From assembly GCA_963844255.1 (NCBI GenBank), contig CAWJNP010000018.1:14847-78846 (forward strand): a DNA stretch of 64,000 nucleotides, written 5' to 3'. Below, in pieces: positions 13,580 to 32,451 of this stretch. The translations under genes were made by a program, and so were the position numbers. Below the pieces are notes generated by a model. The model was not told the origin of the DNA, did no database searches, and saw only the letters and a list, made by a program, of their open reading frames with translations. This stretch comes from an uncultured beta proteobacterium (GTDB lineage: Bacteria > Pseudomonadota > Gammaproteobacteria > Burkholderiales > SG8-39). Position 1 is the stretch's first letter. Each line of letters starts with the position of its first letter.

Positions 13580-14902
13580 ATGCTGCGAGAAAACATCCCC
13601 GAGATTTCGCGCCTGATCGAACCCGACCGCGTGCACAAGTCGGTCTACACCGACGAGCAGCTGTTCGAACTCGAGATGGAGCGGATCCACGAACGCGTCT
13701 GGATCTACTGCGGGCACGAATCGCAGGTGAAGAAGCCCGGCGACTACTACACGGTGCAGATCGGCCGCCAGCCCATGGTCATGGTGCGCGGCGCCGACGG
13801 CAAGGTGAACGTTCTTTACAACCGCTGCCCGCACCGCGGCGCGATGATCTGCGGCGACCGGCACGGCAATGCCGGCGACGCCTTCCGGTGCTCGTACCAC
13901 GCGTGGACGTTCCAGCTGAACGGCAAGCTCAAGAACATCCCGATGATGGAATCCGGCTACAAGGGCACGCGCTGGAACCGCGACAACCCCGACACGGACA
14001 TGAAGCCGGCGGCGCGCGTCGAGAACTACCGCGGCTTCGTGTTCGCGAGCCTCGCGGAAGACGGCCCGACCCTGCTCGAATTCCTCGGACCCTCGAAGAT
14101 CGCCTTCGACGACATCTGCGACCGCGCGCCCGAGGGTGAAGTCGAAGTCGTGCCGACGTGCTTCCGCGTGATCCAGAATTCCAACTGGAAGATCTTCCTC
14201 GAGAACCAGCTCGACGCCCTGCATCCCTCGGTCACCCACCAGTCCACCGGGCGCGCCGCGCGGGACGTGGAAGTCGAGCTCGAGAAGAAGACCGGCCACG
14301 CGCCGCTCGCCTATCACATGCTCTCGGCGTTCTCGACCGTGACGATCGACAAGTGGGACAACTTCCAGACGATCAACTACCCGAACGGCCACTGCATCCT
14401 CACCGGCTACATGGGCCTGCGCCCGCAGGACCCGGACACGCTGGCCTACGAGAAGACGCTGGTGAAGGCCTACGGCGAGAAGCGAAAGGAAGAGATCCTC
14501 TCGACCAACATCCACCATGTGCTTATCTATCCGGGACTGTCGGTTCAGTCGCCGCTGCAGCAGCTGCGCGCGGTGCGGCCGCTGGGCGTGAACAAGACGC
14601 TGACCGAGATCTGGCATTTCCGCCTCAAGGGCGCGCCCGAGCCGATCTATCGCCGGGCCCTTGCGTACTACAACCTCGTCAACTCCCCCGCCACGCTGAT
14701 CAATGCCGACGACCTGGAGAATTTCTGGAAGATCCAGGTGGGCCTGGGGTCGAACGGCGGCGACTGGGTCAGCTTCGCGCGCCACTACGGCCGCGACATC
14801 GAGAAGAATGGTGTGGTATCGACCGACGAAGGCATGGGGACATCTGAAGCGCCGATGCGCAACCAGATGAAGGCATGGGCCAAATTCATGGCCAAGGCGT
14901 AG
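13580..14902 (+). CDS. Rieske non-heme iron ring-hydroxylating oxygenase, alpha subunit
   Basis: Rieske motif CPHRGAMIC-x17-CSYHAW. Mononuclear-iron motif ENQLDALHPSVTH (E-x3-D-x2-H-x4-H). 440 aa, intact. Confidence 0.9.
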   Translation: MLRENIPEISRLIEPDRVHKSVYTDEQLFELEMERIHERVWIYCGHESQVKKPGDYYTVQIGRQPMVMVRGADGKVNVLYNRCPHRGAMICGDRHGNAGDAFRCSYHAWTFQLNGKLKNIPMMESGYKGTRWNRDNPDTDMKPAARVENYRGFVFASLAEDGPTLLEFLGPSKIAFDDICDRAPEGEVEVVPTCFRVIQNSNWKIFLENQLDALHPSVTHQSTGRAARDVEVELEKKTGHAPLAYHMLSAFSTVTIDKWDNFQTINYPNGHCILTGYMGLRPQDPDTLAYEKTLVKAYGEKRKEEILSTNIHHVLIYPGLSVQSPLQQLRAVRPLGVNKTLTEIWHFRLKGAPEPIYRRALAYYNLVNSPATLINADDLENFWKIQVGLGSNGGDWVSFARHYGRDIEKNGVVSTDEGMGTSEAPMRNQMKAWAKFMAKA

Positions 14903-14913
14903 GAGCGAAGAAC

Positions 14914-15552
14914 ATGGCAAAGAAGAACCTCAATAAGGCAGCAAAGAAATCCGCCGCGCGCAAGACTGTGGTGAAGAAGTCTGCGGCGAAGACGGCCACG
15001 GTGAAAAAGGCCGCGGTAAAGAAATCCCTGGTGAAGTCGCCAGTTCGCAAGCCCGCGGCCACAAAACCCAACGGCCACGCAACCCAGCACGCGGTCGAGC
15101 AGTTCCTCTACCGTCAGGCGGAGATCCTCGACGGCAAGCAGTGGCAGGACTACATCGATCTGTTCACCGCCGACGGCGTCTACTGGATGCCGGCCGATCC
15201 CGCAGACAAGCACTGGGATGGCATTCCCTCGATCTTCGCCGAGGACAGGAACCTCATGACGGTCAGGATGAAGCGCGTGCTGCATCCGGATGCCTGGTCG
15301 CAGCGCCCGCTCTGGGGCACCAACCACGTGGTCGGCAACGTGATCATCGAGAAGGAATCGCCCAGCGGCGACGTGCTCGTGCGCTCGCGCTTTCACATGA
15401 TGGAGCTGCGCCGCGACAACGTGCGGCATTTTGCCGGCAGCTATGTGCACCAGCTGAAGAAAACTGCCGGCGGTTACCGCATCAAGACGCAGCGCGTCGA
15501 CATGACCAACGCACAGGCAGCGTTCGACTACGTGCTGCAGGTCTGGGTCTAG
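14914..15552 (+). CDS. Ring-hydroxylating oxygenase beta subunit (NTF2/SnoaL-like) with Lys/Ala-rich N-terminal extension
   Basis: AGGAG RBS 8 nt before the ATG at 14914. Residues 1-55 (MAKKNLNKAAKKSAARKTVVKKSAAKTATVKKAAVKKSLVKSPVRKPAATKPNGH) precede a canonical beta-subunit core: VEQFLYRQAEILDGKQWQDYIDLFTADGVYWMP...RSRFHMMELRRD... Confidence 0.85.
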   Translation: MAKKNLNKAAKKSAARKTVVKKSAAKTATVKKAAVKKSLVKSPVRKPAATKPNGHATQHAVEQFLYRQAEILDGKQWQDYIDLFTADGVYWMPADPADKHWDGIPSIFAEDRNLMTVRMKRVLHPDAWSQRPLWGTNHVVGNVIIEKESPSGDVLVRSRFHMMELRRDNVRHFAGSYVHQLKKTAGGYRIKTQRVDMTNAQAAFDYVLQVWV

Positions 15553-15595: not shown

Positions 15596-16312
15596 TCAGG
15601 CCCGGGTTCGCGCCACGTAGACCGTGTTCGCGGCCTCCCGGTTCTGCAGCGGGTTGTGGAAACGCACGACGTGCGCAACAGAGGTCTCGAACACCGCCGC
15701 GAGCTTCGCCTGGAAATCCTCGTCCGGCGGGTCGTTGGACCACAGCGCAAACACGCCGCCCGGATGCAGGTGGGCGGCGAGCCGCCGCAGGCCGGCGATT
15801 TCGTAGCACGCGGCGTTGCTCGCATGCAGCACGTCGCGCGGCGAATGATCGATATCGACCAGTATCGCGTGAAACCTTCTCGCCTGGTCGCGCGAATCGA
15901 TGCCCGGGAAATCCAGCAGCGCAAAGAAATCCGCGTTGAGCAGGGTGCAGCGCGGATCCGCGCTCAACGCGGCGCCCAGCGGGACCAACCCCCGCCGATG
16001 CCAGTCGATGACCGCCGCCAGCGCGTCGATGACCAGCAGAGAGCCGGTTCCGGGATGGTCGAGAACGGCCCGCGCGGTGTAGCCCAGGCCGAGCCCGCCC
16101 ACGACGACATCCAGCGGACCACCTCCCAGGTCTGCAAGGCCCAGATTGGCCAACGCGATCTCCCCTTCCGTAAACAGGCTCGACATCAGGAATTCGTCGC
16201 CGAGCTTGACCTCGAACACCTCCACGCCAAGCGGCAATTGCGTACGACGCCGCAGACTCAGTTCGCCGATCGGGGTCTCGCGGTAATCAAGTTCTTCAAA
16301 GTCGATCAGCAT
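15596..16312 (-). CDS. Spermidine-synthase-like SAM-dependent methyltransferase-fold protein
   Basis: 238 aa. Motif I-like VVVGGLGLGYTA, acidic loop ILVDIDHSP, ...GGVFALW. The function is not deducible beyond the fold class. Confidence 0.7.
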   Translation of the reverse strand: MLIDFEELDYRETPIGELSLRRRTQLPLGVEVFEVKLGDEFLMSSLFTEGEIALANLGLADLGGGPLDVVVGGLGLGYTARAVLDHPGTGSLLVIDALAAVIDWHRRGLVPLGAALSADPRCTLLNADFFALLDFPGIDSRDQARRFHAILVDIDHSPRDVLHASNAACYEIAGLRRLAAHLHPGGVFALWSNDPPDEDFQAKLAAVFETSVAHVVRFHNPLQNREAANTVYVARTRA

Positions 16313-16424: not shown

Positions 16425-16757
16425 TTATGGCGTGGCCGGACAGAATATGCCGTAAAGAGTGTTCAGCAGCGCGGTGGCCTCGCTGCTCGCCAGGCGGTAG
16501 TAAATCCGCTTGCCGTCGCGACGCGTGTCGACCACGCCCTCGGTGCGCAGGACGCCTAGTTGCTGCGAGAGGGTCGGTTGATGAATGTCCAACAGTGCTT
16601 CGAGTTCGCTGACCGACTTCTCGCCATCGATCATCTGGCACAGCAGGAGCAGACGCTCCCGGTTTCCCAGGGTCTTCAACAGGGCGCATGCCGTGTCGGC
16701 CGCTTCCCGCATCGCATTGATTTGCTGAGGTTTCATTTGAGCGGGATCCAGAGCCAA
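16425..16757 (-). CDS. ArsR/SmtB-family repressor of the SqrR/BigR (persulfide-sensing) type
   Basis: 110 aa (TTG start in the track; the first ATG is at residue 8). HTH SVSELEALLDIHQPTLSQQLGVLRTEGVV. There are only three Cys, and two of them (C40 in LLLCQM and C106 in IFCP) sit where the sensing pair of SqrR/BigR lies (about C41/C107 and C42/C108, recalled from memory). No metal-site motifs (ELCVCDL-type) are present. Confidence 0.8.
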   Translation of the reverse strand: MALDPAQMKPQQINAMREAADTACALLKTLGNRERLLLLCQMIDGEKSVSELEALLDIHQPTLSQQLGVLRTEGVVDTRRDGKRIYYRLASSEATALLNTLYGIFCPATP

Positions 16758-16765
16758 ATAATATA

Positions 16766-16794
16766 TTGACTAATATAATGACAGATAATATTAT
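16766..16794 (+). promoter_or_regulatory. Candidate sigma-70 promoter of the trxC-sqr operon with an overlapping AT-rich palindrome (putative SqrR operator)
   Basis: TTGACT (16766-16771), a 17-nt spacer, then TATTAT (16789-16794). The perfect palindrome ATAATATTAT (16785-16794) overlaps the -10. A second AT palindrome AATATATT lies at 16759-16766. This is the only strongly AT-rich patch in a GC-rich neighbourhood. Confidence 0.4.
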
Positions 16795-16847
16795 ATCTTT
16801 ATTGAAAACGTAACAAGTCCCCATCGCCGGGACGAGGAGATGAGTCG

Positions 16848-17276
16848 ATGCTGATTGCCTGCAGCCAGTGTGGGACGAAAAACCGGATCGCCGCCGAGCG
16901 CGCGAACGACGCGCCCGTGTGTGGGCGCTGCAAGGCGCCTCTGTTGTCCGGCCATCCGGTCGAACTCGATCAAGAGAGCTTCGCCGCGCTGACCAGCGCG
17001 CTCGATACACCGGTGGTGGTGGATTTCTGGGCGCCCTGGTGCGGCCCCTGCCGCGCGTTTGCGCCCGCCTACGCCAACGTCGCCGGCGAGCTCGCCGGAC
17101 GCGCGGTGTTCGCGAAGGTCAACACCGAGGACGAAGAGGATCTCGCCCGGCGCCTGAACATCCGCAGCATCCCGACGCTCGCAGTGTTTCAGGGCGGGCG
17201 CGAAATCGCGCGCATGAGCGGCGCCCTCCCGGCACCTCAATTCCGCGCCTGGGTGGAAGGCCGTCTCGCCGCCTGA
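16848..17276 (+). CDS. trxC: Thioredoxin 2 (zinc-finger N-terminal extension)
   Basis: N-terminal CSQC-x16-CGRC zinc motif followed by WAPWCGPC. 142 aa. Confidence 0.85.
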   Translation: MLIACSQCGTKNRIAAERANDAPVCGRCKAPLLSGHPVELDQESFAALTSALDTPVVVDFWAPWCGPCRAFAPAYANVAGELAGRAVFAKVNTEDEEDLARRLNIRSIPTLAVFQGGREIARMSGALPAPQFRAWVEGRLAA

Positions 17277-17301
17277 GACCGACATTTAAGGATTCCATTC
17301 C

Positions 17302-18336
17302 ATGAAACTCCGAGGCGCACTTCTCGTAATTGCGGCGGCCCTGCTGCCGGCAGCGGCCTTTGCGCAGACGCTCAGGACTGCGGTCGTGGAATTCCGCGAG
17401 GTCGGACTGACCTACGCCGCGGACGGCGTCGTGGAAGCGATCCGCACCTCGACCATCGCGGCTCAGGTCGCGGGCCGGATCGTCGAACTGCACGTCAGTG
17501 CCGGAGACCGGGTCACGAAAGGCCAGGTGCTTGCGCGGATCGACCCGCGCGAAGCGGCGGAGAGCGTGGCGATGAATCAGGCACAGGTCGCGCGCACCAA
17601 GGCCGATCTGTCGAACGCCGCGGCGAACCTGGAGCGCACCCGCAAGCTGGTTGCGCAGAATTTTGTAAGCCACGCCGCGCTCGACAAGGCGCAGGCCGAC
17701 TTCGATTCGGCACGCGCCCAGCTTGCGGCCTCGCGCGCCTCCGAGTCGCAGGCGGTCACCGTCCAGGACCATACCCGGATCACCGCGCCGTTTGCAGGCG
17801 TGGTCTCCGAGCGCCTGGTGGAACTCGGGGAAATGGCTCAGCCCGGCCGGCCCCTGCTCACGCTGTTCGATCCGAAGGATCTGCGCGCAGTGGCCTACGT
17901 GCCGCAGGACCGCATGGCGGCGATCCGCGGCGATGGCAGCGTGGCAGTGGAAATCCTCGCCCTGAACCAACGGATCAAGGCGGCCCGGGTCACGATCCTG
18001 CCATCGGCCGATCCGCGCACCCACACCACGCAGGTGCGGGTGGACCTTCCGGACGCACTGCAAGGCGTATTTCCCGGCCAGTTCGCGCGGGTGCACTTCA
18101 CCATCGGCAACGCCAAGAAGCTGGTGATCCCGGCCGCGGCCGTGGTCCATCGCAGCGAGGTGGCCGGAGCCTACGTAGTCGGGACCGACGGCGCAATCAG
18201 TCTGCGCCAGTTGCGGCTGGGCGAGTCTGCCGGCGAGTCCGGCATCGAAGTGCTAGCGGGCATCCATCCCGGCGAAAAAGTGGCACTCGATCCGGTCGCG
18301 GCGCTGGCCGCGCTGAAGAGCGTTCGAACGAAATAA
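17302..18336 (+). CDS. RND efflux periplasmic adaptor (membrane fusion protein)
   Basis: Signal peptide MKLRGALLVIAAALLPAAAFAQ. Lipoyl and hairpin pattern (GRIVELHVSAGDRVTKGQVLARID ... coiled-coil ... ITAPFAGVVSER). 344 aa. Confidence 0.85.
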   Translation: MKLRGALLVIAAALLPAAAFAQTLRTAVVEFREVGLTYAADGVVEAIRTSTIAAQVAGRIVELHVSAGDRVTKGQVLARIDPREAAESVAMNQAQVARTKADLSNAAANLERTRKLVAQNFVSHAALDKAQADFDSARAQLAASRASESQAVTVQDHTRITAPFAGVVSERLVELGEMAQPGRPLLTLFDPKDLRAVAYVPQDRMAAIRGDGSVAVEILALNQRIKAARVTILPSADPRTHTTQVRVDLPDALQGVFPGQFARVHFTIGNAKKLVIPAAAVVHRSEVAGAYVVGTDGAISLRQLRLGESAGESGIEVLAGIHPGEKVALDPVAALAALKSVRTK

Positions 18337-18358
18337 GACCCATAACCAGGAGGCAGTC

Positions 18359-19636
18359 ATGGCACACGTGGTAGTGATTGGAGCGGGCATTGGTGGTATG
18401 CCGATGGCCTATGAACTGAAGGAAATGCTGCGTCCGCAGGACAGCATGACCGTGGTCGGCAACGGACCGAACTTCCACTTTGTTCCGTCGAATCCCTGGG
18501 CTGCGGTCAACTGGCGCGACCGGGAGGACATCGAGTTTCCGGTCGCCGGCTACCTTGCCAAAAAGGGGATCGCGTTCAATCCGGCCGGCGCACGGCGCGT
18601 GCATCCGGACAAGAACAGCATTGAACTCGGCGACGGCACGATGCTGTCCTATGACTACCTGGTGATCGCCACCGGCCCGAAGCTCGCATTCGACGAAATC
18701 GAAGGACTCGGTCCCGAAGGCCATACCCAGTCGGTGTGCAACATCGACCACGCCAGCAACGCCGGCAGGGCCTGGAACACCTTCGTCAAGGATCCGGGCC
18801 CGATCGTGGTCGGCGCGGTGCAGGGCGCGTCGTGCTTCGGCCCGGCCTATGAGTTCGCCTTCATCATGGAAACCGACCTGCGCAGGCGCAAGCTGCGCGA
18901 CCGGGTGCCGATGACCTTCGTCACCTCCGAGCCCTACATCGGCCATCTGGGCCTGGGCGGCGTGGGTGACTCCAAGACCATGCTCGAGTCGGCGATGCGG
19001 GACAAACATATCAAGTGGATCACCAACGCCAAGGTCACGAAGGTCGAAGCCGGAAAGATGTACGTCACCGAGCACGACGAGGACGGCAAGGAAAAGAAGC
19101 AGCACGAATTGCCGTTCAAGTACTCGATGATGCTGCCGGCGTTCAAGGGCATCGACGCGGTGTTCGGCATCGAGGGCCTGACCAATCCGCGCGGCTTCAT
19201 CCTGATCGACGCCCACCAGCGCAATCCGAAGTTTCCGAACATCTATGCGGTGGGTGTGTGCGTGGCCATCCCGCCCGTGGAAACGACGCCCGTGCCGACG
19301 GGTGCACCCAAGACCGGCTACATGATCGAGTCCATGGTCACCGCGACCGCACACAACATCCGCGACGCGATCGACGCCAGGGAGCCGAGCCACAAGGCCA
19401 CCTGGAACGCGGTGTGTCTCGCCGACCTCGGCGACACCGGCATCGCCTTCGTGGCGCTGCCGCAGATTCCGCCGCGCAACGTCAACTGGTTTGCCGAAGG
19501 CAAGTGGGTGCACCTGGCCAAGATCGCCTTCGAGAAGTACTTCCTGCGCAAGATGAAGAAAGGCACCTCCGAGCCGCTCTACGAGAAGTACGTGATGAAG
19601 GCTCTCGGCATCGTCAAGCTGAAGGACAAGGTCTAG
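18359..19636 (+). CDS. sqr: Sulfide:quinone oxidoreductase, type I
   Basis: MAHVVVIGAGIGGMP FAD fold. Catalytic Cys in the expected contexts: C127 (QSVCNIDH), C159 (GASCFGPAYE), C353 (NAVCLADLG). These correspond to C128/C160/C356 of Acidithiobacillus SQR (numbering recalled from memory). C-terminal amphipathic helices are present. 425 aa. Confidence 0.9.
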   Translation: MAHVVVIGAGIGGMPMAYELKEMLRPQDSMTVVGNGPNFHFVPSNPWAAVNWRDREDIEFPVAGYLAKKGIAFNPAGARRVHPDKNSIELGDGTMLSYDYLVIATGPKLAFDEIEGLGPEGHTQSVCNIDHASNAGRAWNTFVKDPGPIVVGAVQGASCFGPAYEFAFIMETDLRRRKLRDRVPMTFVTSEPYIGHLGLGGVGDSKTMLESAMRDKHIKWITNAKVTKVEAGKMYVTEHDEDGKEKKQHELPFKYSMMLPAFKGIDAVFGIEGLTNPRGFILIDAHQRNPKFPNIYAVGVCVAIPPVETTPVPTGAPKTGYMIESMVTATAHNIRDAIDAREPSHKATWNAVCLADLGDTGIAFVALPQIPPRNVNWFAEGKWVHLAKIAFEKYFLRKMKKGTSEPLYEKYVMKALGIVKLKDKV

Positions 19637-19642
19637 CAGGCC

Positions 19643-22600
19643 ATGGGCATCTCGGGCCGCATCAGCCGCTTCTTCGTCGCCTCCCAGCTGACCCCGCTGG
19701 TCGCGCTGGTCGCCGCCCTGCTCGGCATTTTTGCCGTGCTCGTGACGCCGCGCGAGGAGGAACCGCAGATCAACGTGGTGATGGCCAATGTGATGATTGC
19801 GTTTCCAGGCGCCTCGGCGAAGGACGTCGAATCTCTCGTGGCAATCCCGGCCGAGCAGGTTCTATCGCAGATCACCGGGATCGAGCACGTGTATTCCGTG
19901 TCCCGGCCCGGCAGCGCGATACTCACCGTGCAGTTCAAGGTCGGCGAAGATCGCACCCAGGCACTGGTGCGCCTCTACGACACGCTCTACTCCAACAAGG
20001 ACTGGATCTCGCCCAACCTCGGCGTCGGCGAGCCGATCATCAAGCCCATGGGCATCGACGACGTGCCGATCGTGGTCGCCACCCTGTGGACCGCAGACCC
20101 GGTGCGTGGGGCCTACGACCTGGAGCGCGTGGCGCACGCAGCGGAGGCCGAACTCAAGCGCGTCCCCGGCACCCGGGTCGTGCAGACCATCGGCGGGCCG
20201 CAGCGCAGCGTACGCATCCTTCTCGATCCGGAGCGCATGCAATCCTACGGGATTGCCGCGCAGGACATCCGTGCTGCACTGCTCGGCGCCAACCTCAACC
20301 TGTCGGCGGGCAGCCTCGTGCAAGGGAACAAGGAGACCCTGGTGGAAGCCGGAGGCTTCCTCGGCTCCGCAAGTGAAGTCGCCGGTCTGATCGTGGGCCG
20401 GCAGAGCGGCCGTCCGGTCACCATCAACGATATCGCACGGGTGACCGACGGTCCCGATCTGCCGAAGCGCTATGTCTGGCATGGCACGCAAGCCGGCGAG
20501 TATCCCGCCGTAAGCATTGCGATCTCGAAGAAGGCCGGAGAAAACGCGGTCGATGTCGCAGACAAGCTGATCCGCCGGATCGAGCAACTCAAGGGCAGCG
20601 TGGTCCCCGAAGGCGTCAACGTCAGCGTGACCCGCAACTACGGCCAGACCGCCAACGACAAGGCCATGAAGCTGATCCAAAAGCTGATCTTCGCCACGCT
20701 TTCGGTCATCGTGCTGGTCTGGATCGCGATCGGCCGGCGCGAAGCAGTGATCGTCGGGGTCGCGGTGCTGCTGACCCTCGCAGCGACCCTGTTCGCCTCC
20801 TGGGCCTGGGGATTCACCCTCAATCGGGTTTCGCTGTTCGCACTGATCTTCTCGATCGGCATCCTGGTGGACGACGCGATCGTGGTGGTCGAGAACATCC
20901 ATCGGCATCGCGCGCTGTCTTCCGAACCGCTGATGTCCCTGATTCCCCACGCGGTGGATGAAGTCGGCGGACCCACGATCCTCGCCACATTCACGGTCAT
21001 CGCGGCGCTGCTGCCGATGGCCTTCGTCTCCGGCCTGATGGGCCCGTACATGAGCCCGATCCCGATCAACGCATCGATGGGCATGCTGATCTCACTTGCA
21101 ATTGCGTTCGTGGTCACCCCCTGGCTGGCCGCGAGGTTGCTGCCTGCGCGTGTGGCGACGGCGCACGCAGACGGTGGAAGTCCGCGCCTTGCACGGCTCG
21201 CGCGGCGGTCGATCGGACCGTTCCTGCGCGGCAGGGACGGGCGCGGCGCACGCGGGGCGCTGCTCGGCGCGGTGCTGCTGCTCATCGTGTTCGCGGTGTC
21301 GCTCGCAGGACTCAAGCTCGTCGTGCTCAAGATGCTGCCTTTCGACAACAAGTCTGAGTTCCAGGTTGTGCTCGACATGCCGGTGGGCACGCCGCTGGAG
21401 GACACCTCGCGCGTACTGCACGAGATCGGGACCTATGTCGCCACCGTGCCCGAGGTGACCGATTACCAGGCCTATGCCGGCACCAGCGCGCCGATCAACT
21501 TCAACGGGCTGGTGCGCCAGTACTACCTGCGCGCGCTGCCGGAACTGGGCGACCTGCAGGTCAATCTCGTCGACAAGCACCATCGCGATCGCAAGAGCCA
21601 CGAAATCGCCGCCGCGGTGCGTCCGGCGATCGAAGCCATCGCGAAGCGCCATGGCGCGAGCGTCAAAGTGGTCGAAGTCCCGCCAGGCCCGCCGGTCCTG
21701 GCGCCGATCGTGGCCGAGGTCTACGGGCCGGACTATGCAGGCCAGCAGAAGGCCGCCGGCCAGCTGCGCGCCGTGTTCGGTGCAACGAAGGACATCGTCG
21801 ACATCGATTCGAGCGTCGAGGAAGCCGCGCCGCGCCTGCTGCTCTCCGTGGACCGCCAGAAGGCCTCATCGATGGGCGTCGCGCAAGCCGACGTGGTGCA
21901 GACCGTCCGCGCAGCGCTCGCGGGCGATGACGTGACGCCGCTGCACACCGGCAGCGCGAAGTACGAAATCCCTGTGCGGATCATGCTGCCGCCAGAAAAA
22001 CTCAGCGGGCTGGAAGCCATCATGAAGCTGCGGGTCCGTGCCGCCGACGGCACCCTGGTACCGCTTTCGGAAGTCGTTCGAATCACGCATTCGAATCGCG
22101 AACAGACGATCTATCACAAGGACCTGCTGCCGGTGGTGTACGTCGTCGGCGACATGGCCGGCGGCCTCGACAGCCCGCTGTACGGCATGTTCAACATGCG
22201 TTCCGAAATTTCCAAGCTCGCCGCGCCGCAGGGCAGCAAGTTCGGCGAATACTTCATCAATCAGCCCGGCGATCCGTATGCCGAATATGCGCTCAAGTGG
22301 GACGGCGAGTGGCAGGTGACCTACGAGACCTTTCGCGACATGGGCCTGGCCTATGCGGTCGGCCTGGTGCTCATCTACCTGCTGGTGGTCGCGCAGTTTC
22401 GCTCGTACGTCGTGCCGCTGGTGATCATGGCGCCGATCCCGCTGACCATCATCGGCGTGATGCCCGGGCACGCGCTGCTCGGCGCGCAGTTCACGGCCAC
22501 TTCGATGATCGGCATGATCGCCCTGGCCGGCATCATCGTGCGCAATTCGATCCTGCTGGTGGACTTCATCAAGCTCCAGGTCTCGCAGGGCATGGACCTG

Positions 22601-22867
22601 CAGGACGCAGTGATCAGTTCGGCGGCGACGCGCGCCAAGCCCATCGTGCTGACCGGACTCGCCGCCATGATCGGCGCCCTGTTCATCCTTGACGACCCGA
22701 TCTTCAACGGTCTCGCGATCTCGCTGATCTTCGGGATCATGGTTTCGACCCTGCTCACCCTGGTCGTGATCCCGGTCCTCTACTACGCCGTGTCCTGGCG
22801 CAAGGCACTGCCGGTGCAGCCGGAGGACACCGAACAACCCGATCCGCTACTCCAACCCCCGCACTGA
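19643..22867 (+). CDS. RND efflux transporter, inner-membrane permease subunit
   Basis: 1074 aa, intact, 12-TM/2-loop architecture. TM4 GILVDDAIVVVENIHRH has the AcrB-type proton-relay DD. The start lies 6 nt after the sqr stop. Confidence 0.9.
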   Translation: MGISGRISRFFVASQLTPLVALVAALLGIFAVLVTPREEEPQINVVMANVMIAFPGASAKDVESLVAIPAEQVLSQITGIEHVYSVSRPGSAILTVQFKVGEDRTQALVRLYDTLYSNKDWISPNLGVGEPIIKPMGIDDVPIVVATLWTADPVRGAYDLERVAHAAEAELKRVPGTRVVQTIGGPQRSVRILLDPERMQSYGIAAQDIRAALLGANLNLSAGSLVQGNKETLVEAGGFLGSASEVAGLIVGRQSGRPVTINDIARVTDGPDLPKRYVWHGTQAGEYPAVSIAISKKAGENAVDVADKLIRRIEQLKGSVVPEGVNVSVTRNYGQTANDKAMKLIQKLIFATLSVIVLVWIAIGRREAVIVGVAVLLTLAATLFASWAWGFTLNRVSLFALIFSIGILVDDAIVVVENIHRHRALSSEPLMSLIPHAVDEVGGPTILATFTVIAALLPMAFVSGLMGPYMSPIPINASMGMLISLAIAFVVTPWLAARLLPARVATAHADGGSPRLARLARRSIGPFLRGRDGRGARGALLGAVLLLIVFAVSLAGLKLVVLKMLPFDNKSEFQVVLDMPVGTPLEDTSRVLHEIGTYVATVPEVTDYQAYAGTSAPINFNGLVRQYYLRALPELGDLQVNLVDKHHRDRKSHEIAAAVRPAIEAIAKRHGASVKVVEVPPGPPVLAPIVAEVYGPDYAGQQKAAGQLRAVFGATKDIVDIDSSVEEAAPRLLLSVDRQKASSMGVAQADVVQTVRAALAGDDVTPLHTGSAKYEIPVRIMLPPEKLSGLEAIMKLRVRAADGTLVPLSEVVRITHSNREQTIYHKDLLPVVYVVGDMAGGLDSPLYGMFNMRSEISKLAAPQGSKFGEYFINQPGDPYAEYALKWDGEWQVTYETFRDMGLAYAVGLVLIYLLVVAQFRSYVVPLVIMAPIPLTIIGVMPGHALLGAQFTATSMIGMIALAGIIVRNSILLVDFIKLQVSQGMDLQDAVISSAATRAKPIVLTGLAAMIGALFILDDPIFNGLAISLIFGIMVSTLLTLVVIPVLYYAVSWRKALPVQPEDTEQPDPLLQPPH

Positions 22868-22878
22868 AAGGAAACACC

Positions 22879-23121
22879 ATGACCACCGAAAACGTCATCC
22901 GCATCTTCGCGGGCACAATGATCCTCGTCTCGCTCTCGCTGGGCGCGGACGCGAGCCCGCTGTTCCACAGCCGCCACTGGCTCTGGCTGACCACCTTCGT
23001 CGGCGCCAACCTGTTCCAGTTCGGCTTCAGCGGCGCCTGCCCGCTTGAGTTCGTGCTGAAAAAGCTCGGCGTGAAGACCTGCGCGCAGGCGACCGAAGCG
23101 CGGTTGCAGGCGCAGCACTGA
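22879..23121 (+). CDS. DUF2892 (YgaP C-terminal-like) small membrane protein
   Basis: 80 aa. Two hydrophobic helices and the ...FQFGFSGACPLEFVLKKLG motif characteristic of DUF2892. Confidence 0.75.
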   Translation: MTTENVIRIFAGTMILVSLSLGADASPLFHSRHWLWLTTFVGANLFQFGFSGACPLEFVLKKLGVKTCAQATEARLQAQH

Positions 23122-23130
23122 GCGACCGGT

Positions 23131-24561
23131 TCAGCTGCCAGGCTTTGGCTGGCTCGCCGCCTCCCAGCCGCCGCCCAGCGCCTTGATCAACTGAACGCTG
23201 GCGGTCATGCGGCGGCCGAGGATGTCGGCTGCCGAGCGCTGATTCGCCAACGCCGTGGCCTGCGCGCTCACGACCTGCAGGTAGGTGGTGATGCCGGCCT
23301 TGTACTGGTTCAGCGCATGGGTGAGGGACTGTTCCGCGGATTTCACGGCTTCATCCTGCAGCGCGGCTTCCTCCTCCAGTACGCGCAAGGCGACGAGATT
23401 GTCCTCCACCTCGCGAAAGCCGGTCAGTACGGTCGCGCGGTAGTTCGCGACGGTCGCGTCATACGCGGCCACCGCCTGATCGCTCGCCGCGCGCCTGCGC
23501 CCCCCGTCGAACAGCGTGAGGGCCAGCGCCGGACCGACCGACCAGAACCTGCTTGGCAGCGTGAACCAGTTTCCGGTCGTTGCACTCTGCACGCCGTATG
23601 CCGCGCTCAGCGTCGCGGCCGGATAGAACGCCGCAGCAGCCACGCCGATCTGCGCGTTGGCCGCAGCGACGCGGCGCTCGGCGGCGGCGACGTCGGGCCT
23701 GCGCTCCAGGAGGTCCGCAGGCAGCGCGACCGGAATCCGGGGGGGCGAACCGGTCAGTGGCGTAACCGCAATCGTGACCTCCGCAGGCGGCTTGCCGATC
23801 AGCACGGCGATCGCGTGTTCGAGCTGCGCCCGCGACACCGTCAGTTCAAGGGCCTGAACCTGCGTCGACTTGAGCTGCGTCTCTGCCTGCGCCACATCGG
23901 ACTTCGGCACCACGCCGACCCGGTAGCGGTTGCCGGTGAGTTCCAGCGACTTCGCGTAGGCCGCGATCGTCCGCTCCAGGAGCTGGCGCTGCGCGTCCAG
24001 TGCACGCAGCTGAAAATAGTTCTGAGCGAGCGTCGCCTGCACGCTCAGGCGCACGTTTTCGACGTCTGCTGCACTCGCCTGCGCGCCGGCCTCGCCGGCC
24101 TCTACGCTGCGCCCGACGCGGCCCCACAGGTCCGCCTCCCATGAAAGGTTCAGCGGCGCCGAATAGATCGTGCGCTTGCTGGTCGAGACGCCGACCACAG
24201 GCCCGGTCGTAGCCGAAGGCCGCGAACGCGTTTCGGACAATCCTCCGGTCATGTTCGGGAACCAGGCGGCGCGCGCGGACTGCATCAGCGCAGTCGCCTG
24301 GCGGAACTGCGCTTCCGACGCGAGCAGTGTCTGGTTGGATACGCTGACCTGCGCCATCAGCGCGTCGAGCTTCGCATCTGCGTATGCTGCCCACCAACTG
24401 CCGCGACGCACGTCGTCCTTCGGTTGTGCCCGTTGCCAGGCCGCGGCCTCCTTGTACGCGGCGGGGGCCTCGACCACCGGCCGCACATAGTCCGGTCCGG
24501 CGCTGCACCCCGCGAGCAGCATTGCTGCGAACCCCGTCCATCGAATCCCGCGCTTCGTCAT
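23131..24561 (-). CDS. Outer-membrane efflux lipoprotein, NodT/OprM family
   Basis: [25 protein letters not shown] (lipobox LAGC), then typical OMF repeats ([13 protein letters not shown]..., LIKALGGGW). The ATG (complement 24559-24561) overlaps the mdtC stop. The track ORF 23131..25632 is an out-of-frame upstream extension. Confidence 0.9.
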
Positions 24562-27500
24562 TCCTGTCCTCCGAGGGCCATGTGGCGCGCCGACCACGGC
24601 CAGCGCCGCGCCCCCCACAGCCTGAACCGGTCGAGATACAGATACACCACCGGCGTCGTATACAGCGTCAGGACTTGGCTGAACACCAGGCCACCCACGA
24701 TCGCGATGCCCAGGGGTCGACGCAGCTCGGCACCGTCGCCGAAGCCGATCGCCAGCGGCACGGCGCCAAGCAGCGCCGCCATCGTGGTCATCATGATCGG
24801 ACGGAACCGCAGGAGGCAGGCCTCGTGGATCGCCTTCTCCGGAGACAGTCCGCGGGTTCGTTCGGCATCGAGCGCGAAATCGACCATCATGATGGCGTTT
24901 TTCTTGACGATGCCAATCAGCAGGATCACGCCGATCAGCGCGATGATGCTGAACTCCGTATTGAACGCCAGCAGCGCGAGCAGGGCGCCGACGCCGGCCG
25001 AGGGCAGGGTCGACAGGATCGTGATCGGGTGCACCAGGCTTTCGTACAACATGCCGAGGACGATATATACGGTGATCAGGGCAGCAAGGATCAGCCATGG
25101 CTGGCTCTCGAGCGACGCCTGGAACGCGCGCGCCGTCCCCTGGAATGTCCCGTGCACCGTCGTCGGCACGCCGATCCGATCGAGCGCGACCTTGATCGCC
25201 GACGTGGCCTGCGAGAGCGATACCCCGACCGGCAGGTTGAACGAGATCGTCGAGGCGGCAAACTGCCCCTGGTGGTTCACGCCGAGGGGCGCGCTTCCCG
25301 GCCCGTAGGTCGCGAAAGCGGAGAGCGGCACCTGTGCTCCGCCCGGTGCGGACACGTAAACGTTCTTCAGCGCCTCGGGGCTCTGCCAGAATTCCGGCGC
25401 AGCTTCCATCACCACGCGGTACTGGTTCAGGGGATTGTAGATCGTCGAGATCACGCGCTGGCCGAACGCATCGTTGAGCGTCGCATCGATCATGCGCACG
25501 GAGATACCCAGCTGCGCCGCCCTGTCGCGGTCGATCTGCAGGGTCGTCTGCAGGCCCTTGTCCTCGCGGTCGGTGTTCACGTCGACGATTTCCGGCACGT
25601 CGCTCATCGCCTGGCGCACCTTCGGCTCCCACTCGCGCAGTTCATCCAGCTCGTCGGCCTGCAGCGTGTACTGGTACTGTGCGCTGGATGACCGGCCGCC
25701 GATGCGGATGTCCTGCACGGGTATGAGGAACAGGCTCGCGCCCGGCTCTTTGGCAAGCTTGCCGCGCAGCCGCCCGACGACCCGGTCGGCCGACAGGTTC
25801 CTCTCCGCGAGCGGCTTGAGCGTGACGAACATGAACGCGCTGTTCCTCTGTGCACCGCCGGTAAACGCGACGACCGTCTCCACGGCCGGATCGCTGCGCA
25901 CGATGTCGACGAACGCCGCGACCTTGTCGCGCATCGCCTGGAACGAGATGCTCTGGTCGGCCTGCACCCGCCCGACGATCCGGCCGGTATCCTGCTGCGG
26001 GAAGAATCCCTTGGGAACGATGGTGTACAGGTAGACATTCAGCCCGATGGTCGCGGCGAGCAGCACCATCATGAAGCGCCCGTGGCGCAGGGCCCATCCG
26101 AGCGTGACCTCGTAGGTGCGCAGCATCGCCGCAAAGCTCCGCTCGCTCGCACGATACAGGCGGCCGTGGACGTCCTCCTTCCTGTCGGCCCGCAACAGCC
26201 GCGCGCACATCATCGGCGTGGTGGTGAGCGACACCAGCAGCGATATCAGGATCGCCACCGACAGCACCACTGCAAACTCGCGGAAGAGCCGGCCCACGAT
26301 CCCGCCCATCAGCAGGATCGGGATGAACACCGCGATCAGCGACAGGCTCATGGACAGCACCGTGAAGCCCACTTCGCGCGAGCCCTGCAGGGCCGCCTGC
26401 ATCGGCGTCATGCCACCTTCGATGCGGCGCGAGATGTTCTCGAGCACCACGATGGCGTCGTCCACCACGAAGCCGGTGGAGATGGTCAGCGCCATCAGTG
26501 ACAGGTTGTCCACGCTGTAGCCGCACAGGTACATCACGCCGAAGGTGCCGATCAGGGACACCGGCACCGCAACGCTGGGAATCAGGGTGGCGCGCCAGTT
26601 GCGCAGGAACATGAAGACGACCATGATCACCAGCGCGATCGAAATGGCCAGTGCGCGCTCGACGTCGCGCAGGCTGGCCCGGATCGTCGGCGTGCGGTCC
26701 AGTGCCACCTCGACGTCGATGGCGCTCGAAATCGAGGCACGCAGCACCGGCAGGAGGTCGCGCACCCGGTCGACGGTATCGATGATGTTCGCGTTCGGCT
26801 GGCGGTAGAGGATGATGAGCACCGACTGCCGGCCGTTGGCCGAGCCCGAGTTGCGCAGGTCCTGCACCGAATCGACCACCTCGCCCACATCCGACAGGCG
26901 CACCGCCGCGCCATTCCGGTAGGCGACGATCAGCGGCATGTAGTCGGCCGCCCGCTTCGCCTGGTCGTTGGCGAGGATCTGCCAGTGGCGCGTGGCGTCC
27001 TCGACCGAACCCTTGGGCCGGTTCACGTTGGTCGACACGATCGCGGAACGCACCTCCTCCATGCCGATCCTGTACTTGTTCAGGGTCGCCGGATTCAGTT
27101 CCACGCGCACCGCCGGCAGCGAACTGCCGCCGACGGTCACCTCGCCGATGCCCTGCACCTGCGAAAGCTTCTGTGCGAGCACCGTGGAGGCCGCGTCATA
27201 GATCTGGCCCGGCGTCATGGTGTCGGAGGTCAGCGAGAGGATCATGATCGGCGCGTCGGCCGGGTTGACCTTGCGGTAGGTCGGGTTGTTCGGCAGCCCG
27301 CTGGGCAGCGAACTGCGCGCGGCGTTCAGCGCGGCCTGCACGTCGCGCGCCGCGCCGTCGATGCTGCGGCTGAGGTCGAACTGCAGCGTGATCCGCGTCG
27401 CACCGAGGGAACTCGAGGAGGTGATCTCGGTGATCCCGGCGATCCGGCCGAGCGCACGCTCCAGCGGCGTGGCGACAGTGGCCGCCATCGTCTCGGGACT

Positions 27501-27662
27501 CGCCCCGGGCAGCACCGCGCGCACCGAGATCGTCGGGTAGTCCACCTGCGGCAGCGGCGCGACCGGCAGCAGCTTGAACGCGATGGCCCCGGCCAGCGCG
27601 ATGCCCAGTGTCAGCAGAGTCGTGGCCACGGGCCGATCGATGAAGGGACGGCTGATGTTCAC
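24558..27662 (-). CDS. mdtC: Multidrug RND transporter permease, MdtC-like
   Basis: 1034 aa. N-terminus ...[81 protein letters not shown] closely follows E. coli MdtC as I recall it. Confidence 0.9.
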
Positions 27663-27669
27663 GCGACCC

Positions 27670-30600
27670 TCATCCTGCGACCCCGCGGGTGCGCCGCGCC
27701 AGCCGGTCGAACCACAGGTAGATCACCGGTGTGGTGAAGAGCGTCAGCACCTGGCTCACCAGCAGTCCGCCGACCATGGTGATACCCAGGGGGTTGCGCA
27801 GTTCGGAGCCGACTCCGCTGCCGAGCATCAGCGGCAGCGCGGCGAGCAGCGCCGCCAGCGTCGTCATCAGGATCGGACGAAAGCGCAGCAGGCAGGCCTG
27901 GCGGATCGCCTCATGCGGTGATCGGCCCTCCTTGCGCTCGGCCTCGAGCGCGAAGTCGATCATCATGATCGCGTTCTTCTTCACGATCCCGATCAGCAGG
28001 ATGATCCCGATGATCCCGATGATCCCCAGGTCGTTCTTCGACACGATGAGCGCAAGCAGCGCGCCGACGCCGGCCGATGGCAGCGTGGACAGTATGGTCA
28101 CTGGATGGATGTAGCTTTCATACAGCACGCCAAGCACGATATACATGGTGACGATCGCGGCGAGGATCAGCAGCAGCGTATTGTCGAGCGATGCCTGGAA
28201 TGCGAGCGCCGCGCCCTGGAAGCGCGTCTGCACCGAGAGCGGCAGCGCGATGTCCTTGCGGGCAGCGTGGATCGCGTCGACTGCATCGCCCAGGGACGCG
28301 CCCGGCGCCAGATTGAACGAGATCGTGGCCGAAGGAAACTGGCCGAGGTGGTTGATCACCAGCGGGGTGGGTTTTTCGATCACGCGGGCGAGCGCAGACA
28401 GGCGGACCTGCTCGCCGTTCGAGGAACTCACGTGGATGTCATCGAGCGCGGCCGGCCCGGTCCGGAACTCCGGCTTCACCTCGAGCACCACGCGGTACTG
28501 GCTGGTCTGCGTGAAGATGGTCGAGATCAGGCGCTGGCCGAACGCGTTGTAGAGCGCGTTGTCGATGGCCGCCGTCGTGACACCGAGGCGGCCCGCCGTC
28601 GCGCGGTCGATCTCGACATAGGCCTGCAGGCCCTGGTCCTGCAGGTCGCTCGCCACATCTGCCAGCTGCGGCAGGCCGCGCAGGCGCTCGACCAGCCGCG
28701 GCACCCAGAGGCTCAGCTCGGCCGGATCGGCATCCTCAACGCTGAACTGGTACTGGGTGCGGCTGACCCGGTCCTCGATGGTCAGGTCCTGCACCGGCTG
28801 CATGTAGAGCGCGATGCCCTCGACCTTCGCGACCCGGGACTGCAGGCGGCGTATGACTTCCGCCGCCTCGTCCTTGCGCTCGGCGTGCGGCTTCAGATTG
28901 ATCAGCAACCGGCCGCTGTTGAGCGTTGTATTGACGCCGTCCACGCCGATGAAGGACGAGAGGCTGGCAACGGCCGGGTCTTCCAGCACCACGCGCGCCA
29001 GCGCCTGCTGTCGTTCCGACATCGCGCCGAAGGAGATCGACTGCGGCGCTTCGGTGACGCCCTGGATCAGGCCGGTGTCCTGGATCGGAAAGAAGCCCTT
29101 GGGTATGAAGACGTAGAGAACGATCGTCAGCGCGAGCGTCCCGATCGCAACCAGCAGCGTGGCTGTCTGCCGCTCCAGCACCCAGTCGAGCATCACTGCA
29201 TAGCGCGCGATCACCGCGTCGAAGAAACGCCCGCTTGCGCGGTAGAACGCACCGCGTTCGGCCTCGGGCCGGTGGCGCAGCAGCTTGGCGCACATCATCG
29301 GCGTGAGCGTGAGCGAGACCAGCGCGGAGATCAGGATCGCCACCGCGAGGGTGATCGCGAATTCGCGAAACAGGCGGCCCACCACGTCACCCATGAACAG
29401 CAGCGGGATCAGCACCGCGATCAGCGATACCGTCAGCGAGATGATCGTGAACCCGATCTGCTCCGACCCCTTGAGCGCCGCCTCGAGCGGGGAAAGCGGC
29501 GGCGTATTTTCAGTGCCCTCGATGTAGCGCGACACGTTTTCGATCATCACGATCGCGTCGTCGACCACGAATCCGGTGCCGATGGTCAGCGCCATCAGGG
29601 TAAGGTTGTTGATGCTGAATCCGGCGAGGTACATCACCCCGAAGGTGCCGATCAGCGAGACCGGCACCGCAACGCTGGGGATCGCAGTCGCGGGGCCGTT
29701 GCGCAGGAAGAGGAAGATCACCAACACCACCAGCGCGACCGCGAGGGCGAGCTCCATCTTGACGTCCCGCACCGAGGCGCGGATGGTTGTCGTCCGGTCG
29801 GTGAGCAGCGCGACGTCGACCGAACCCGGCAGCGTCGAGCGCAACTGGGGCAGCAGCTTGTTGATGCTGTCGACCACTTCGATCACGTTCGCGCCGGGCT
29901 GGCGCTGGATGTTCACCAGTACCGCGGAAGATTCGTTGGCCCATGCCGCCAGCCGCACGTTCTCCGCGTCGTCCACCGCTTCGGCCACATCCGACAGCCG
30001 CACCGGCCGGCCGGCCTTGTAGGAAACGATCAGGTTGCGGTACTCGTCAGCCGAGCGCAGCTGGTCATTTGCATCGATGGTCGAGGCGCGCGCCGGGCCA
30101 TCGAAGCTCCCCTTTGCCTGGTTGACGTTGGCGGCAGCGATGGCGGTCCGCAGGTCATCGAGCGACAGGCCGTAGGCGGCGAGCACCTTGGGATTGGCCT
30201 GGATGCGCACTGCGGGCCGCTGCCCGCCGGCGAGGCTGACCAGTCCCACGCCGGCCAGCTGCGACAGCTTCTGCGCAACCCGCGTGTCGACGAGGTTCTG
30301 CAGGACGGGCAGAGACAATGTCTTCGAGGTGACCGCAAGCGTGATGATGGGCGTGTCGGCCGGATTGACCTTGGCGTAGATCGGCGGAACCGGGAGGTCG
30401 GACGGGAGCAGGTTGCCCGAGGCGTTGATCGCAGCCTGCACCTCCTGTTCGGCCACATCGAGGCTCAGCGCAAGGCTGAACTGCAGCGTGATCACCGAGG
30501 CACCGCCGGAGCTCGTCGAGGACATCTGGTTGAGGCCCGGCATCTGGCCGAACTGGCGTTCGAGCGGCGCGGTGATCGAGGAGGTCATCACGTCGGGGCT

Positions 30601-30762
30601 CGCGCCGGGGTAGAGCGTCACCACCTGGATGGTCGGGTAATCGACCTCGGGCAGCGCGGAGATCGGCATCACCCGGTAGGCGATGAGGCCGGCCAGCATG
30701 ATCGCGACCATGAACAACAAGGTCGCCACCGGCCGGAGGATGAAGATGCGCGAGGGATTCAC
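27670..30762 (-). CDS. mdtB: Multidrug RND transporter permease, MdtB-like
   Basis: 1030 aa. ...[86 protein letters not shown] is nearly identical in pattern to E. coli MdtB. Confidence 0.9.
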
Positions 30763-30772
30763 GCCCGGATGC

Positions 30773-32221: not shown

Positions 32222-32451
32222 GGTCGGGACTTCCGGGTATCGCGCCGGCGGCGCGGGATGCTGATACGGCTTTATAGCGGTTCGCGCGGTTCGCGGGCAA
32301 TGCTTCCTTGTAACACTTTGTAGCACTTGCACGACCGCCTGCACCTGCGCCCGCCCACCAGGGCGCCGAATGGATAGAATGCGCGCATCAATTCCCGTGC
32401 CCGGAAACGAGGCCGCTGGATTCGATTCACACCATCATTCAAGGAACCCTC

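Follow-up and report, generated by a model that had tools for sequence, protein, structure and literature searches.

A sulfide:quinone oxidoreductase gene inside an RND efflux operon: a candidate module for sulfide detoxification and sulfane-sulfur homeostasis

Background

Why should the gene of a sulfide-oxidising enzyme lie between the two genes of an efflux pump? The question is raised by a stretch of DNA of 64 kb from an uncultured beta proteobacterium (GenBank assembly GCA_963844255.1, contig CAWJNP010000018.1), which we call the window throughout. Its positions 16425-23121 hold six intact open reading frames (ORFs). One encodes a repressor of the ArsR family. The other five diverge from it and encode thioredoxin 2 (TrxC, or Trx2), a periplasmic adaptor, also called membrane fusion protein (MFP), a type I sulfide:quinone oxidoreductase (SQR, gene sqr), the permease of a resistance-nodulation-division (RND) pump and a small membrane protein of the DUF2892 family.

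Sulfide is toxic, and its oxidation makes reactive sulfane sulfur, which has to be managed in its turn. The bacterial routes described so far are of two kinds, further oxidation (persulfide dioxygenase, Sox, sHdr) and the transport of small anions (TauE, YeeE/PmpAB). The cst operon of Staphylococcus aureus (CstR, TauE, CstA, CstB, SQR) combines SQR with a persulfide sensor and an exporter in the membrane, but there the exporter is TauE, while in the window it is an RND system.

Our answer is that the window may encode a module induced by sulfide or sulfane sulfur that serves sulfide detoxification and sulfane-sulfur homeostasis; taken as a whole, we give this statement a probability of about 0.5. 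The arrangement of the genes is not new. The window operon is a further example of an operon type that was reported once, in Azospira, and of a linkage between regulators and pumps that was noted in a survey. The open interest lies elsewhere, namely in the role that a very large uncharacterised clade of RND pumps, together with DUF2892, has in the handling of sulfide and sulfane sulfur.

The operon and the enzymes that it encodes

Protein families were assigned with Pfam and NCBIfam models at their curated cut-offs, and by alignment to solved structures. For the comparison with relatives two samples were drawn. The first is centred on the pump: a scan with the permease, taking one genome per species, gave at least 600 matches, and the best 80 loci (59-72% identity) were analysed. 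They come from Beta- and Gammaproteobacteria, among which oxidisers of sulfur or iron are numerous. The six window proteins were mapped on to the pump loci and all neighbouring ORFs were clustered; neighbours were counted over 84 pump loci and linkage over the 61 that have enough flank, and 78 orthologues of the permease entered an alignment and a neighbour-joining tree. The second sample is centred on the enzyme and holds the 80 closest SQR relatives in metagenomes, 44 of which are well flanked (at least 1.3 kb on both sides). Individual loci are cited below by their L numbers.

The initial annotation of this DNA described six closely spaced genes, and all of their ORFs, coordinates and strands were reproduced. 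The intergenic gaps along trxC, MFP, sqr, RND and DUF2892 are exactly 25, 22, 6 and 11 nt. A purine-rich ribosome-binding site precedes every start codon, and the GC content of third codon positions (0.81-0.93) is as expected of real genes. An exact-sequence look-up of the window SQR returned no record.

The SQR (425 aa; 18359..19636, plus strand) aligns with the sulfide-quinone reductase 3sz0 over residues 2-423 (563 bits, E 3e-168), that is, over its full length including the C-terminal membrane-binding region, and with 3hyv at 362 bits. Both of these enzymes are SQR of type I. In the window protein the counterparts of the three Cys of 3sz0 are Cys127, Cys159 and Cys353, which stand in the same contexts, so the three catalytic Cys in canonical contexts that had been claimed for it are indeed present.

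The adaptor (344 aa; 17302..18336, plus strand) scores 208 bits with the RND_mfp model TIGR01730 (cut-off 94.9) and also matches HlyD_D23 and HlyD_3. It has a signal peptide without a lipobox Cys and contains no Cys at all. The permease (1074 aa; 19643..22867, plus strand) has the full-length architecture of its family (Pfam PF00873 ACR_tran, 517 bits, residues 8-1050). It misses all subfamily and equivalog cut-offs of NCBIfam, the best being RND_permease_2 at 450 bits against 1250 (MdtB/C and AcrB were also tested), and reaches just 190-250 bits against any solved RND protein. Judged by these scores, it is a member of a distinct, uncharacterised clade of HAE1-like pumps. Its motif in transmembrane helix 4 (TM4), GILVDDAIVVVEN, is of the HAE1 type and is invariant across the 78 orthologues, as are the relay residues Asp410/Asp411, Arg997 and Thr1004. 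AcrAB-TolC, MexAB-OprM and MexJK share with the window system an ACR_tran permease, the Asp-Asp pair of TM4, an Arg and a Thr in TM11, and an adaptor. The AcrB-like proton relay of the initial annotation can be kept for these residues, but not for the Lys of TM10: at the position of AcrB Lys940 all 78 orthologues have an Arg (Arg967 in the window). MexB has Lys here and MexK has Arg.

The permease of the window has no Cys. The same is true of 62 of the 78 orthologues and of most of their adaptors, whereas the neighbouring Mdt-like pumps of the window have 2-3 Cys. A pump lacking Cys fits, as weak evidence, a machine that is exposed to reactive sulfur.

TrxC (142 aa; 16848..17276, plus strand) is recognised by the equivalog model NF008229 (160 bits, cut-off 125) and by the Pfam models PF21352 Zn_ribbon_Thio2 and Thioredoxin. 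It has the two CxxC motifs of the Zn ribbon (Cys 5/8/25/28) and a WCGPC active site (Cys 65/68).

The last gene of the operon encodes a DUF2892 or YgaP-like protein of 80 aa (22879..23121, plus strand; PF11127 YgaP-like_TM, 44.3 bits, cut-off 25.3) with two hydrophobic helices. Cys54, in an xCP/L motif after helix 2, is conserved in 29 of 29 aligned homologues, and the tail of the window protein also has Cys68. The family PF11127 is named after the membrane domain of YgaP, a membrane rhodanese encoded by ygaVP of E. coli, whose YgaV is related to the window repressor; unlike YgaP, the DUF2892 protein of the window stands alone, with no rhodanese domain. Like the AcrZ-type accessory proteins, it is a small membrane protein encoded right after the permease. 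It is unrelated to AcrZ, having two helices and a conserved Cys, and its association with the pump is putative. In L081 the RND stop codon and the DUF2892 start codon overlap by 4 nt.

As a separate observation, many DUF2892 homologues (among L001-L083) end in short Cys tails such as GSCCG, GGCC, SCSTC and SCCDDKASCCSK, which suggests a second thiol site that binds sulfur or metal.

The repressor and its candidate operator

The repressor (110 aa; 16425..16757, minus strand) matches Pfam HTH_5 (E 3e-10) and the NCBIfam model HTH_metalloreg (74.5 bits, cut-off 55), which places it in the ArsR/SmtB winged-helix fold. Among solved structures it is closest to BigR (3pqj, E 3e-26) and to the ArsR-family regulator 6o8k-6o8o (E 2e-20); YgaV (3cuo, E 4e-14) is a further relative. 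Cys40 (in LLLCQ) and Cys106 (in IFCP) align with both Cys of 3pqj and of 6o8k-6o8o. The corresponding pair of BigR is Cys42/Cys108. Both Cys are conserved among the BigR-type homologues that adjoin orthologous pumps.

The only promoter-like site on either strand between 16300 and 23400 is a sigma-70-like one, TTGACT-17 nt-TATTAT, at 16766..16794 on the plus strand, in front of the operon that runs from trxC to DUF2892. In the same interval no terminator-like site was found on the plus strand inside the operon. When the divergent intergenic regions of BigR-type loci are aligned, they share a palindrome with the consensus ATTATATT-N4-AATATAAT. The window copy, AATATATTGACTAATATAAT, reads AATATATT-GACT-AATATAAT in its parts, lies at 16760..16779 and overlaps the -35 hexamer. 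At two mismatches or fewer it is the single match in the 64-kb window, and none of 100 shuffles gave any. In 2.3 Mb of related loci there are just three further matches (L052, L069 and L083), each just upstream of a BigR-type ArsR gene and facing the first gene of the divergent pump operon. We regard the palindrome as a candidate operator, and its motif is specific to the BigR-type promoters of the pump module. It differs from the reported SqrR site, ATTC-N8-GAAT. A second palindrome, ATAATATTAT, was read from the sequence at 16786..16795, where it overlaps the -10 hexamer.

The window thus resembles the BigR-Blh operon of Xylella and Agrobacterium and the SqrR regulon of Rhodobacter capsulatus in having a two-Cys ArsR repressor, a divergent AT-rich palindromic operator (a candidate one in the window) and, presumably, control over sqr. 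The output differs: SQR, RND pump, DUF2892 and TrxC, with no persulfide dioxygenase or rhodanese found. The absence of the latter two, which the initial annotation had pointed out, was borne out when the whole window was queried. Searches for Blh-type persulfide dioxygenase, rhodanese, TehA, CsoR and OsmC gave no homologue in any part of it; TauE was not searched for.

In other subclades of the pump the regulator is of a different type, and each type has two conserved Cys. The ArsR of Gallionella-type loci is co-directional with the pump and has its Cys at the BigR positions, while that of Comamonadaceae-type loci has a C-terminal CDLVC motif. In nine loci a CsoR-family protein substitutes for ArsR or accompanies it.

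These nine CsoR/RcnR-family two-Cys repressors are encoded after DUF2892 in Comamonadaceae-type loci (L037, L045, L063, L070, L073, L076, L077, L079 and L044). In alignment, six of the nine have two Cys and no His near the second one, and they reach 36-45 bits with the Cu-sensor model, whose cut-off is 175. They may be CstR-like sulfane-sulfur sensors. A formal assignment to CstR was given up, since they are far under every curated cut-off and, by manual count, the second Cys is off the canonical position.

Recurrence of the module among related pumps

Is the proximity of sqr and the pump peculiar to this genome? The MFP-RND pair is the core around which the other genes are found, with the adaptor gene upstream of the pump in 76 of the 84 loci. 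The commonest neighbour of the pump is DUF2892, present in 42 of the 61 well-flanked loci and directly downstream in 30. A type I SQR gene lies within 10 kb of the pump in 14 of the 61, where chance would give fewer than one (binomial P ~1e-18 at p=0.006). The other neighbours are two-Cys ArsR (30 loci), Trx2 (12 of 84), an outer-membrane factor (OMF; 10), two-Cys CsoR-family proteins (9) and TehA/SLAC1 (6); genes for OsmC, Bcp peroxidase and Blh-type dioxygenase also recur. Seen from the side of the enzyme, MFP and/or RND genes of this pump clade directly flank sqr in 24 of the 80 metagenomic SQR loci. The complete MFP-SQR-RND sandwich is found in 15 of the 44 well-flanked ones, and also in Gallionella, Polaromonas and other genomes. 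A restriction to this strain, which the initial annotation had named as a result that would speak against its idea when it proposed a neighbourhood search, is therefore not what we see.

The same gene set surrounds orthologous pumps in shuffled order in many Beta-, Gamma- and Alphaproteobacteria. In particular, sqr occupies three different slots: between MFP and RND (window, L083, L005, L016), between RND and DUF2892 (L063, L069, L070, L079), or at the end of MFP-RND-DUF2892-(Trx2)-(OMF) (L024, L032, L048, L072). The three slots correspond to three betaproteobacterial subclades of the pump tree, and inside the subclades there are members with and without sqr. A pump phylogeny had been suggested in order to see whether the permease forms a clade that co-occurs with sqr; such a link is found in three subclades, yet it is absent from some of their members. 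DUF2892 is nearly always present on the betaproteobacterial branch, while the gammaproteobacterial branch consists mostly of bare MFP-RND pairs, sometimes followed by LysR-PerM and Bcp. In our opinion, shuffled gene orders and variable presence within subclades are strong comparative evidence for a functional link and not for one inherited accident.

Two close relatives illustrate the lability of the insertion. L083, whose pump is 88% identical, shares its synteny with the window, but there the repressor gene is followed by cydAB (L083 4479-7086). Cytochrome bd oxidase resists sulfide. In L081 (84% pump identity) ArsR is divergent from Trx2-MFP-RND-DUF2892, there is no sqr, and the repressor gene is followed by split YeeE/YedE (PmpAB-like) genes (L081 7156-8385).

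The linkage is kept even at 42-58% pump identity on plasmids and chromids, with alphaproteobacterial plasmids at ~44%. On the conjugative plasmid pISP1 of Sphingomonas sp. MM-1 (L166), TolC-DUF2892-SQR is divergent from rhodanese-MFP-RND-ArsR; cydAB is near the module, and the SQR is 64% identical to that of the window. Plasmid 1 of P. denitrificans PD1222 carries, in succession, genes for an MBL hydrolase, DUF2892, YeeE, DUF6691, a sulfurtransferase, ArsR, two cytochromes, DUF2892, MFP and RND, and a Vibrio replicon has DUF2892 divergent from MFP-RND. Two related pump operons include a Blh-type persulfide dioxygenase domain (L069 7864-8724 and L058 13868-14713; 399 bits, model positions 142-423), and in L069 this gene is the first after the BigR-type repressor and its perfect palindrome. 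Efflux and dioxygenation are thus not mutually exclusive.

Two further observations on the gene neighbourhoods may be recorded here. In six gammaproteobacterial sulfur oxidisers (L014, L017, L026, L027, L050 and L053) there is a variant of the module with MFP-RND-LysR, a protein of ~130 aa without a Pfam match and a PerM-type permease; a Bcp peroxiredoxin gene is on the opposite strand, and neither DUF2892 nor SQR is present. Rhodanese was considered as a core partner of the pump and rejected, as the recurring gene sits in gpmI-rhodanese-grxC-secB-gpsA of Gallionella-type genomes, which looks like housekeeping synteny.

Earlier reports on such operons

The initial annotation was aware of no description of an SQR embedded in an MFP-RND pair. 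In this it was mistaken, as Mehta-Kolte et al. (2017, mBio, PMC5358917) described exactly such an operon in Azospira suillum PS. Dsui_3440-3443, singled out by Bar-seq fitness, encode a hypothetical protein, a cation/multidrug efflux pump, SQR and an RND MFP, and H2S raises all four genes from log2 values of ~1-4 to 8.6-10.6 in RNA-seq. The order MFP, SQR, RND, small protein is that of the window, and both operons are betaproteobacterial, as is the bulk of the DUF2892-linked clade. The report mentions neither trxC nor a divergent ArsR, whereas the window has both. Its authors left the pump unstudied and guessed that it exports metal sulfide. A separate DUF2892 gene, Dsui_0042, was among the most H2S-induced transcripts of Azospira (PMC5358917).

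More recently, Li et al. (2025, Mol Microbiol, PMC12423496) found that two-Cys ArsR regulators are often encoded beside RND pumps and suggested that these pumps carry sulfur compounds. This was a survey without pump experiments, and it mentions neither sqr inside a pump operon nor DUF2892. We found nothing in the papers searched that links SQR, RND and DUF2892 beyond these two; matches on Thiohalobacter, P. putida selenite, Allochromatium pyrite and C. metallidurans proved unrelated.

That the six genes form one unit linked to sulfide or sulfane sulfur, as first annotated, is upheld by the recurring gene set, the conserved palindrome and the H2S-induced operon of the same order in Azospira suillum. 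We consider it highly probable that the module is one sulfide-responsive unit.

What the module might do

We propose the following sequence of events. The BigR/SqrR-like repressor would bind the palindrome at 16760-16779, over the -35 hexamer of the divergent promoter. When sulfane sulfur rises, it would bridge Cys40 and Cys106 (by a tetrasulfide in characterised relatives), and the repressor would leave the DNA. A single transcript would then give TrxC, adaptor, type I SQR, RND permease and DUF2892. SQR, to judge by its strong homology, should work at the membrane, turning H2S into zero-valent sulfur (polysulfide, S8 or thiol persulfides) and handing the electrons to quinone. The adaptor and permease, with an outer-membrane channel encoded elsewhere, may remove a sulfide-derived product, most probably sulfane sulfur, from the membrane or periplasm. 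DUF2892, a small membrane protein with Cys, could be a partner that deals with sulfur species at the inner membrane, and TrxC could reduce cytoplasmic persulfides and so reset the sensor. Thioredoxins do reduce polysulfides and persulfides (PMC9995734).

The step that bears on our opening question is the one that joins the pump to the product of SQR. That the substrate of the pump is sulfane sulfur derived from SQR is the best available reading, founded on gene association, and we put it forward tentatively. Four considerations favour it. The periplasm and the outer leaflet are where RND pumps pick up their substrates, and this is the side on which the product of SQR would appear. Further, sqr has been recruited repeatedly into the pump operon. 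An OMF gene is inside the pump operon in 10 related loci, and TolC is encoded on pISP1 as well; the in-operon OMF of these relatives implies export across the outer membrane. Finally, the way in which extracellular sulfur arises in cells with type I SQR is described as unknown (PMC9995734), and some type I SQR are reported to be periplasmic despite having no signal peptide (Schutz 1999, cited in PMC9995734). One can go further and suppose that this RND clade, with its adaptor, a TolC-type channel and DUF2892, is a dedicated exporter of the zero-valent sulfur (polysulfide, S8, thiol polysulfides) made by type I SQR. In this strong form the idea is doubtful in our eyes.

Several points weigh against our proposal and they should be stated together. 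The support for sulfane-sulfur export is guilt by association throughout, and we know of no RND pump that carries inorganic sulfur. The deletion of sqr or of the whole operon in Azospira left the rate of perchlorate-dependent sulfide oxidation unchanged (PMC5358917), which argues against a role in the oxidation rate; besides, we infer that the Azospira pump is orthologous from gene order and from the Rhodocyclales members in our sample, not from its sequence. The initial annotation called the repressor SqrR/BigR-type on account of its C40/C106 pair. The alignment of the pair supports this, while the best NCBIfam model, BigR NF040642, gives 115.8 bits, under the equivalog cut-off of 155, so that the protein is better called BigR-like than a BigR equivalog. 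The window operon contains no gene for an outer-membrane factor. By a weak positive-inside charge signal, the Cys of DUF2892 probably face the cytoplasm, which would be a poor fit to simple capture of a substrate from the periplasm. DUF2892 is also found beside YeeE and MBL genes without the pump, and hence looks like a sulfur-handling protein and not a pump-specific subunit. Lastly, SQR and DUF2892 are both missing from the vicinity of most gammaproteobacterial pumps of the clade, so the core role of the pump may be broader.

Alternative explanations

The main rival is that we deal with a general stress or xenobiotic pump, for hydrophobic electrophiles, solvents or antibiotics, which is merely co-regulated by reactive sulfur, in the manner of the pumps under MexR, MarR or OhrR control. 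SQR and pump would then share a regulator and have no substrate-product relation. Sulfane sulfur is reported to affect repressors of multidrug-resistance genes that belong to the MarR family, namely MarR, MexR and OhrR (PMC9495516). The TM4 motif of HAE1 type and the architecture of a multidrug pump agree with such a role. So do the OsmC-like and Bcp peroxidase genes that recur around the pump, the many clade members that lack a neighbouring SQR gene, and the unchanged sulfide oxidation rate of the Azospira deletion. Co-regulation alone, however, leaves unexplained why sqr is found in three slots in three subclades. It also has to contend with the fact that the commonest neighbour of the pump is DUF2892, a family otherwise associated with YeeE, MBL dioxygenase and rhodanese, and that the permease is remote from every characterised multidrug pump. 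We judge this explanation to be rather unlikely, but it is the one to be taken most seriously.

A second possibility is that the pump exports thiophilic metal ions, or the metal-sulfide complexes that form when sulfide enters. Metal-sulfide export was proposed by Mehta-Kolte et al. for sulfide-induced RND pumps (PMC5358917). In our data, repressors of CsoR/RcnR, a metal-sensor family, adjoin the pump in 9 loci, and the second-best model of the window adaptor is CzcB/NccB, below its cut-off. Heavy-metal RND pumps carry a TM4 signature different from that of HAE1, and it is the HAE1 motif that is invariant in the 78 orthologues. The heavy-metal model CusA/CzcA (TIGR00914) gives the permease 270 bits against a cut-off of 701, which leaves it outside the heavy-metal efflux family. 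A Met relay of the CusA type was sought in the pump; its Met residues show no more than background conservation (11 of 28 against 39% overall), nothing points to such a relay, and the idea was dropped for this reason. The CsoR-family neighbours speak less for metals than their family name does, given that six of nine have no His near the second Cys and that their scores are far from the Cu-sensor cut-off. The regulator in the window is a two-Cys ArsR, not a metal-site ArsR. Export of metals by this pump therefore appears improbable to us.

Thirdly, pump and DUF2892 might move small soluble sulfur compounds (sulfite, thiosulfate, thiocyanate), or, instead of efflux, they might help SQR to be assembled or positioned at the periplasmic face. 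The known cargo of RND/MFP/OMF systems is either amphiphilic or hydrophobic compounds or metal ions, and we know of none for small oxyanions or for protein placement, so that both ideas are without precedent among RND systems. Genes for TehA/SLAC1-type channels and for YeeE/YedE do recur near the pump, but these dedicated anion carriers coexist with it and do not stand in its stead. The passage of PMC9995734 on periplasmic type I SQR without a signal peptide could be read in favour of placement; most pump loci, on the other hand, have no SQR to assemble. We hold this explanation to be very improbable. A last alternative, that sqr came by chance to lie in a pump operon with which it has nothing to do, in this lineage, is effectively refuted. 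L081 lacks sqr at 84% pump identity and the insertion is thus not fixed, but the sandwich recurs in 15 of 44 well-flanked loci from unrelated metagenomes and in Gallionella, Polaromonas and other genomes, the linkage recurs in other gene orders and classes, the count of pump loci with sqr nearby is far above chance (binomial P ~1e-18), and H2S co-induction was published for the same gene order (PMC5358917).

Implications

The pump family is present in at least 600 species-level genomes and has been wired repeatedly, on a conjugative plasmid too, to SQR, putative sulfane-sulfur sensors, Trx2 and DUF2892. If the clade does export zero-valent sulfur, it would be the first known transporter of elemental sulfur and the missing route by which many sulfide-oxidising or sulfide-tolerant Proteobacteria deposit sulfur outside the cell. 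It would also add a new substrate class to the RND pumps, give DUF2892 a function, and provide a genetic handle on the formation of extracellular sulfur, with consequences for sulfur cycling, souring control and H2S-linked antibiotic tolerance. Otherwise, the module would still be a good example of an efflux pump that is controlled by a probable persulfide sensor. The question of what the pump carries can be tested directly, because there are cultured carriers: Azospira suillum PS, for which an RB-TnSeq library exists, Paraburkholderia kururiensis JCM 10599, Ideonella aquatica, Limnohabitans sp. 2KL-1 and Sphingomonas sp. MM-1.

Neighbouring genes

Downstream of the module, and convergent with it, is an Mdt-like operon on the minus strand that spans 23131-32344. 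It consists of an OMF gene (23131..24630; Pfam OEP, E 1e-51), two Mdt-like RND permease genes (24558-27662 and 27670-30762) and a probable adaptor gene (30773-32344). The stop codon of the OMF gene is 9 nt from that of DUF2892. The same layout recurs in L083, and for this reason we regard this OMF as a candidate for the channel that serves the pump in trans.

On the repressor strand, after the repressor, there is an ORF of 238 aa (15596-16312). It was considered as a seventh member of the module and rejected: it has a weak spermidine-synthase-like fold match, and homologues are found in none of 163 related loci. Further upstream, at 13580-15552 on the plus strand, a Rieske-type ring-hydroxylating oxygenase is encoded by one gene for its alpha subunit (440 aa) and one for its beta subunit (225 aa). 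They have the same position in L083, where Pfam families are recorded for them, and they appear to have no connection with the sulfide module. An N-terminal extension of the beta-subunit ORF, rich in Lys and Ala, may reflect the call of an upstream start codon.

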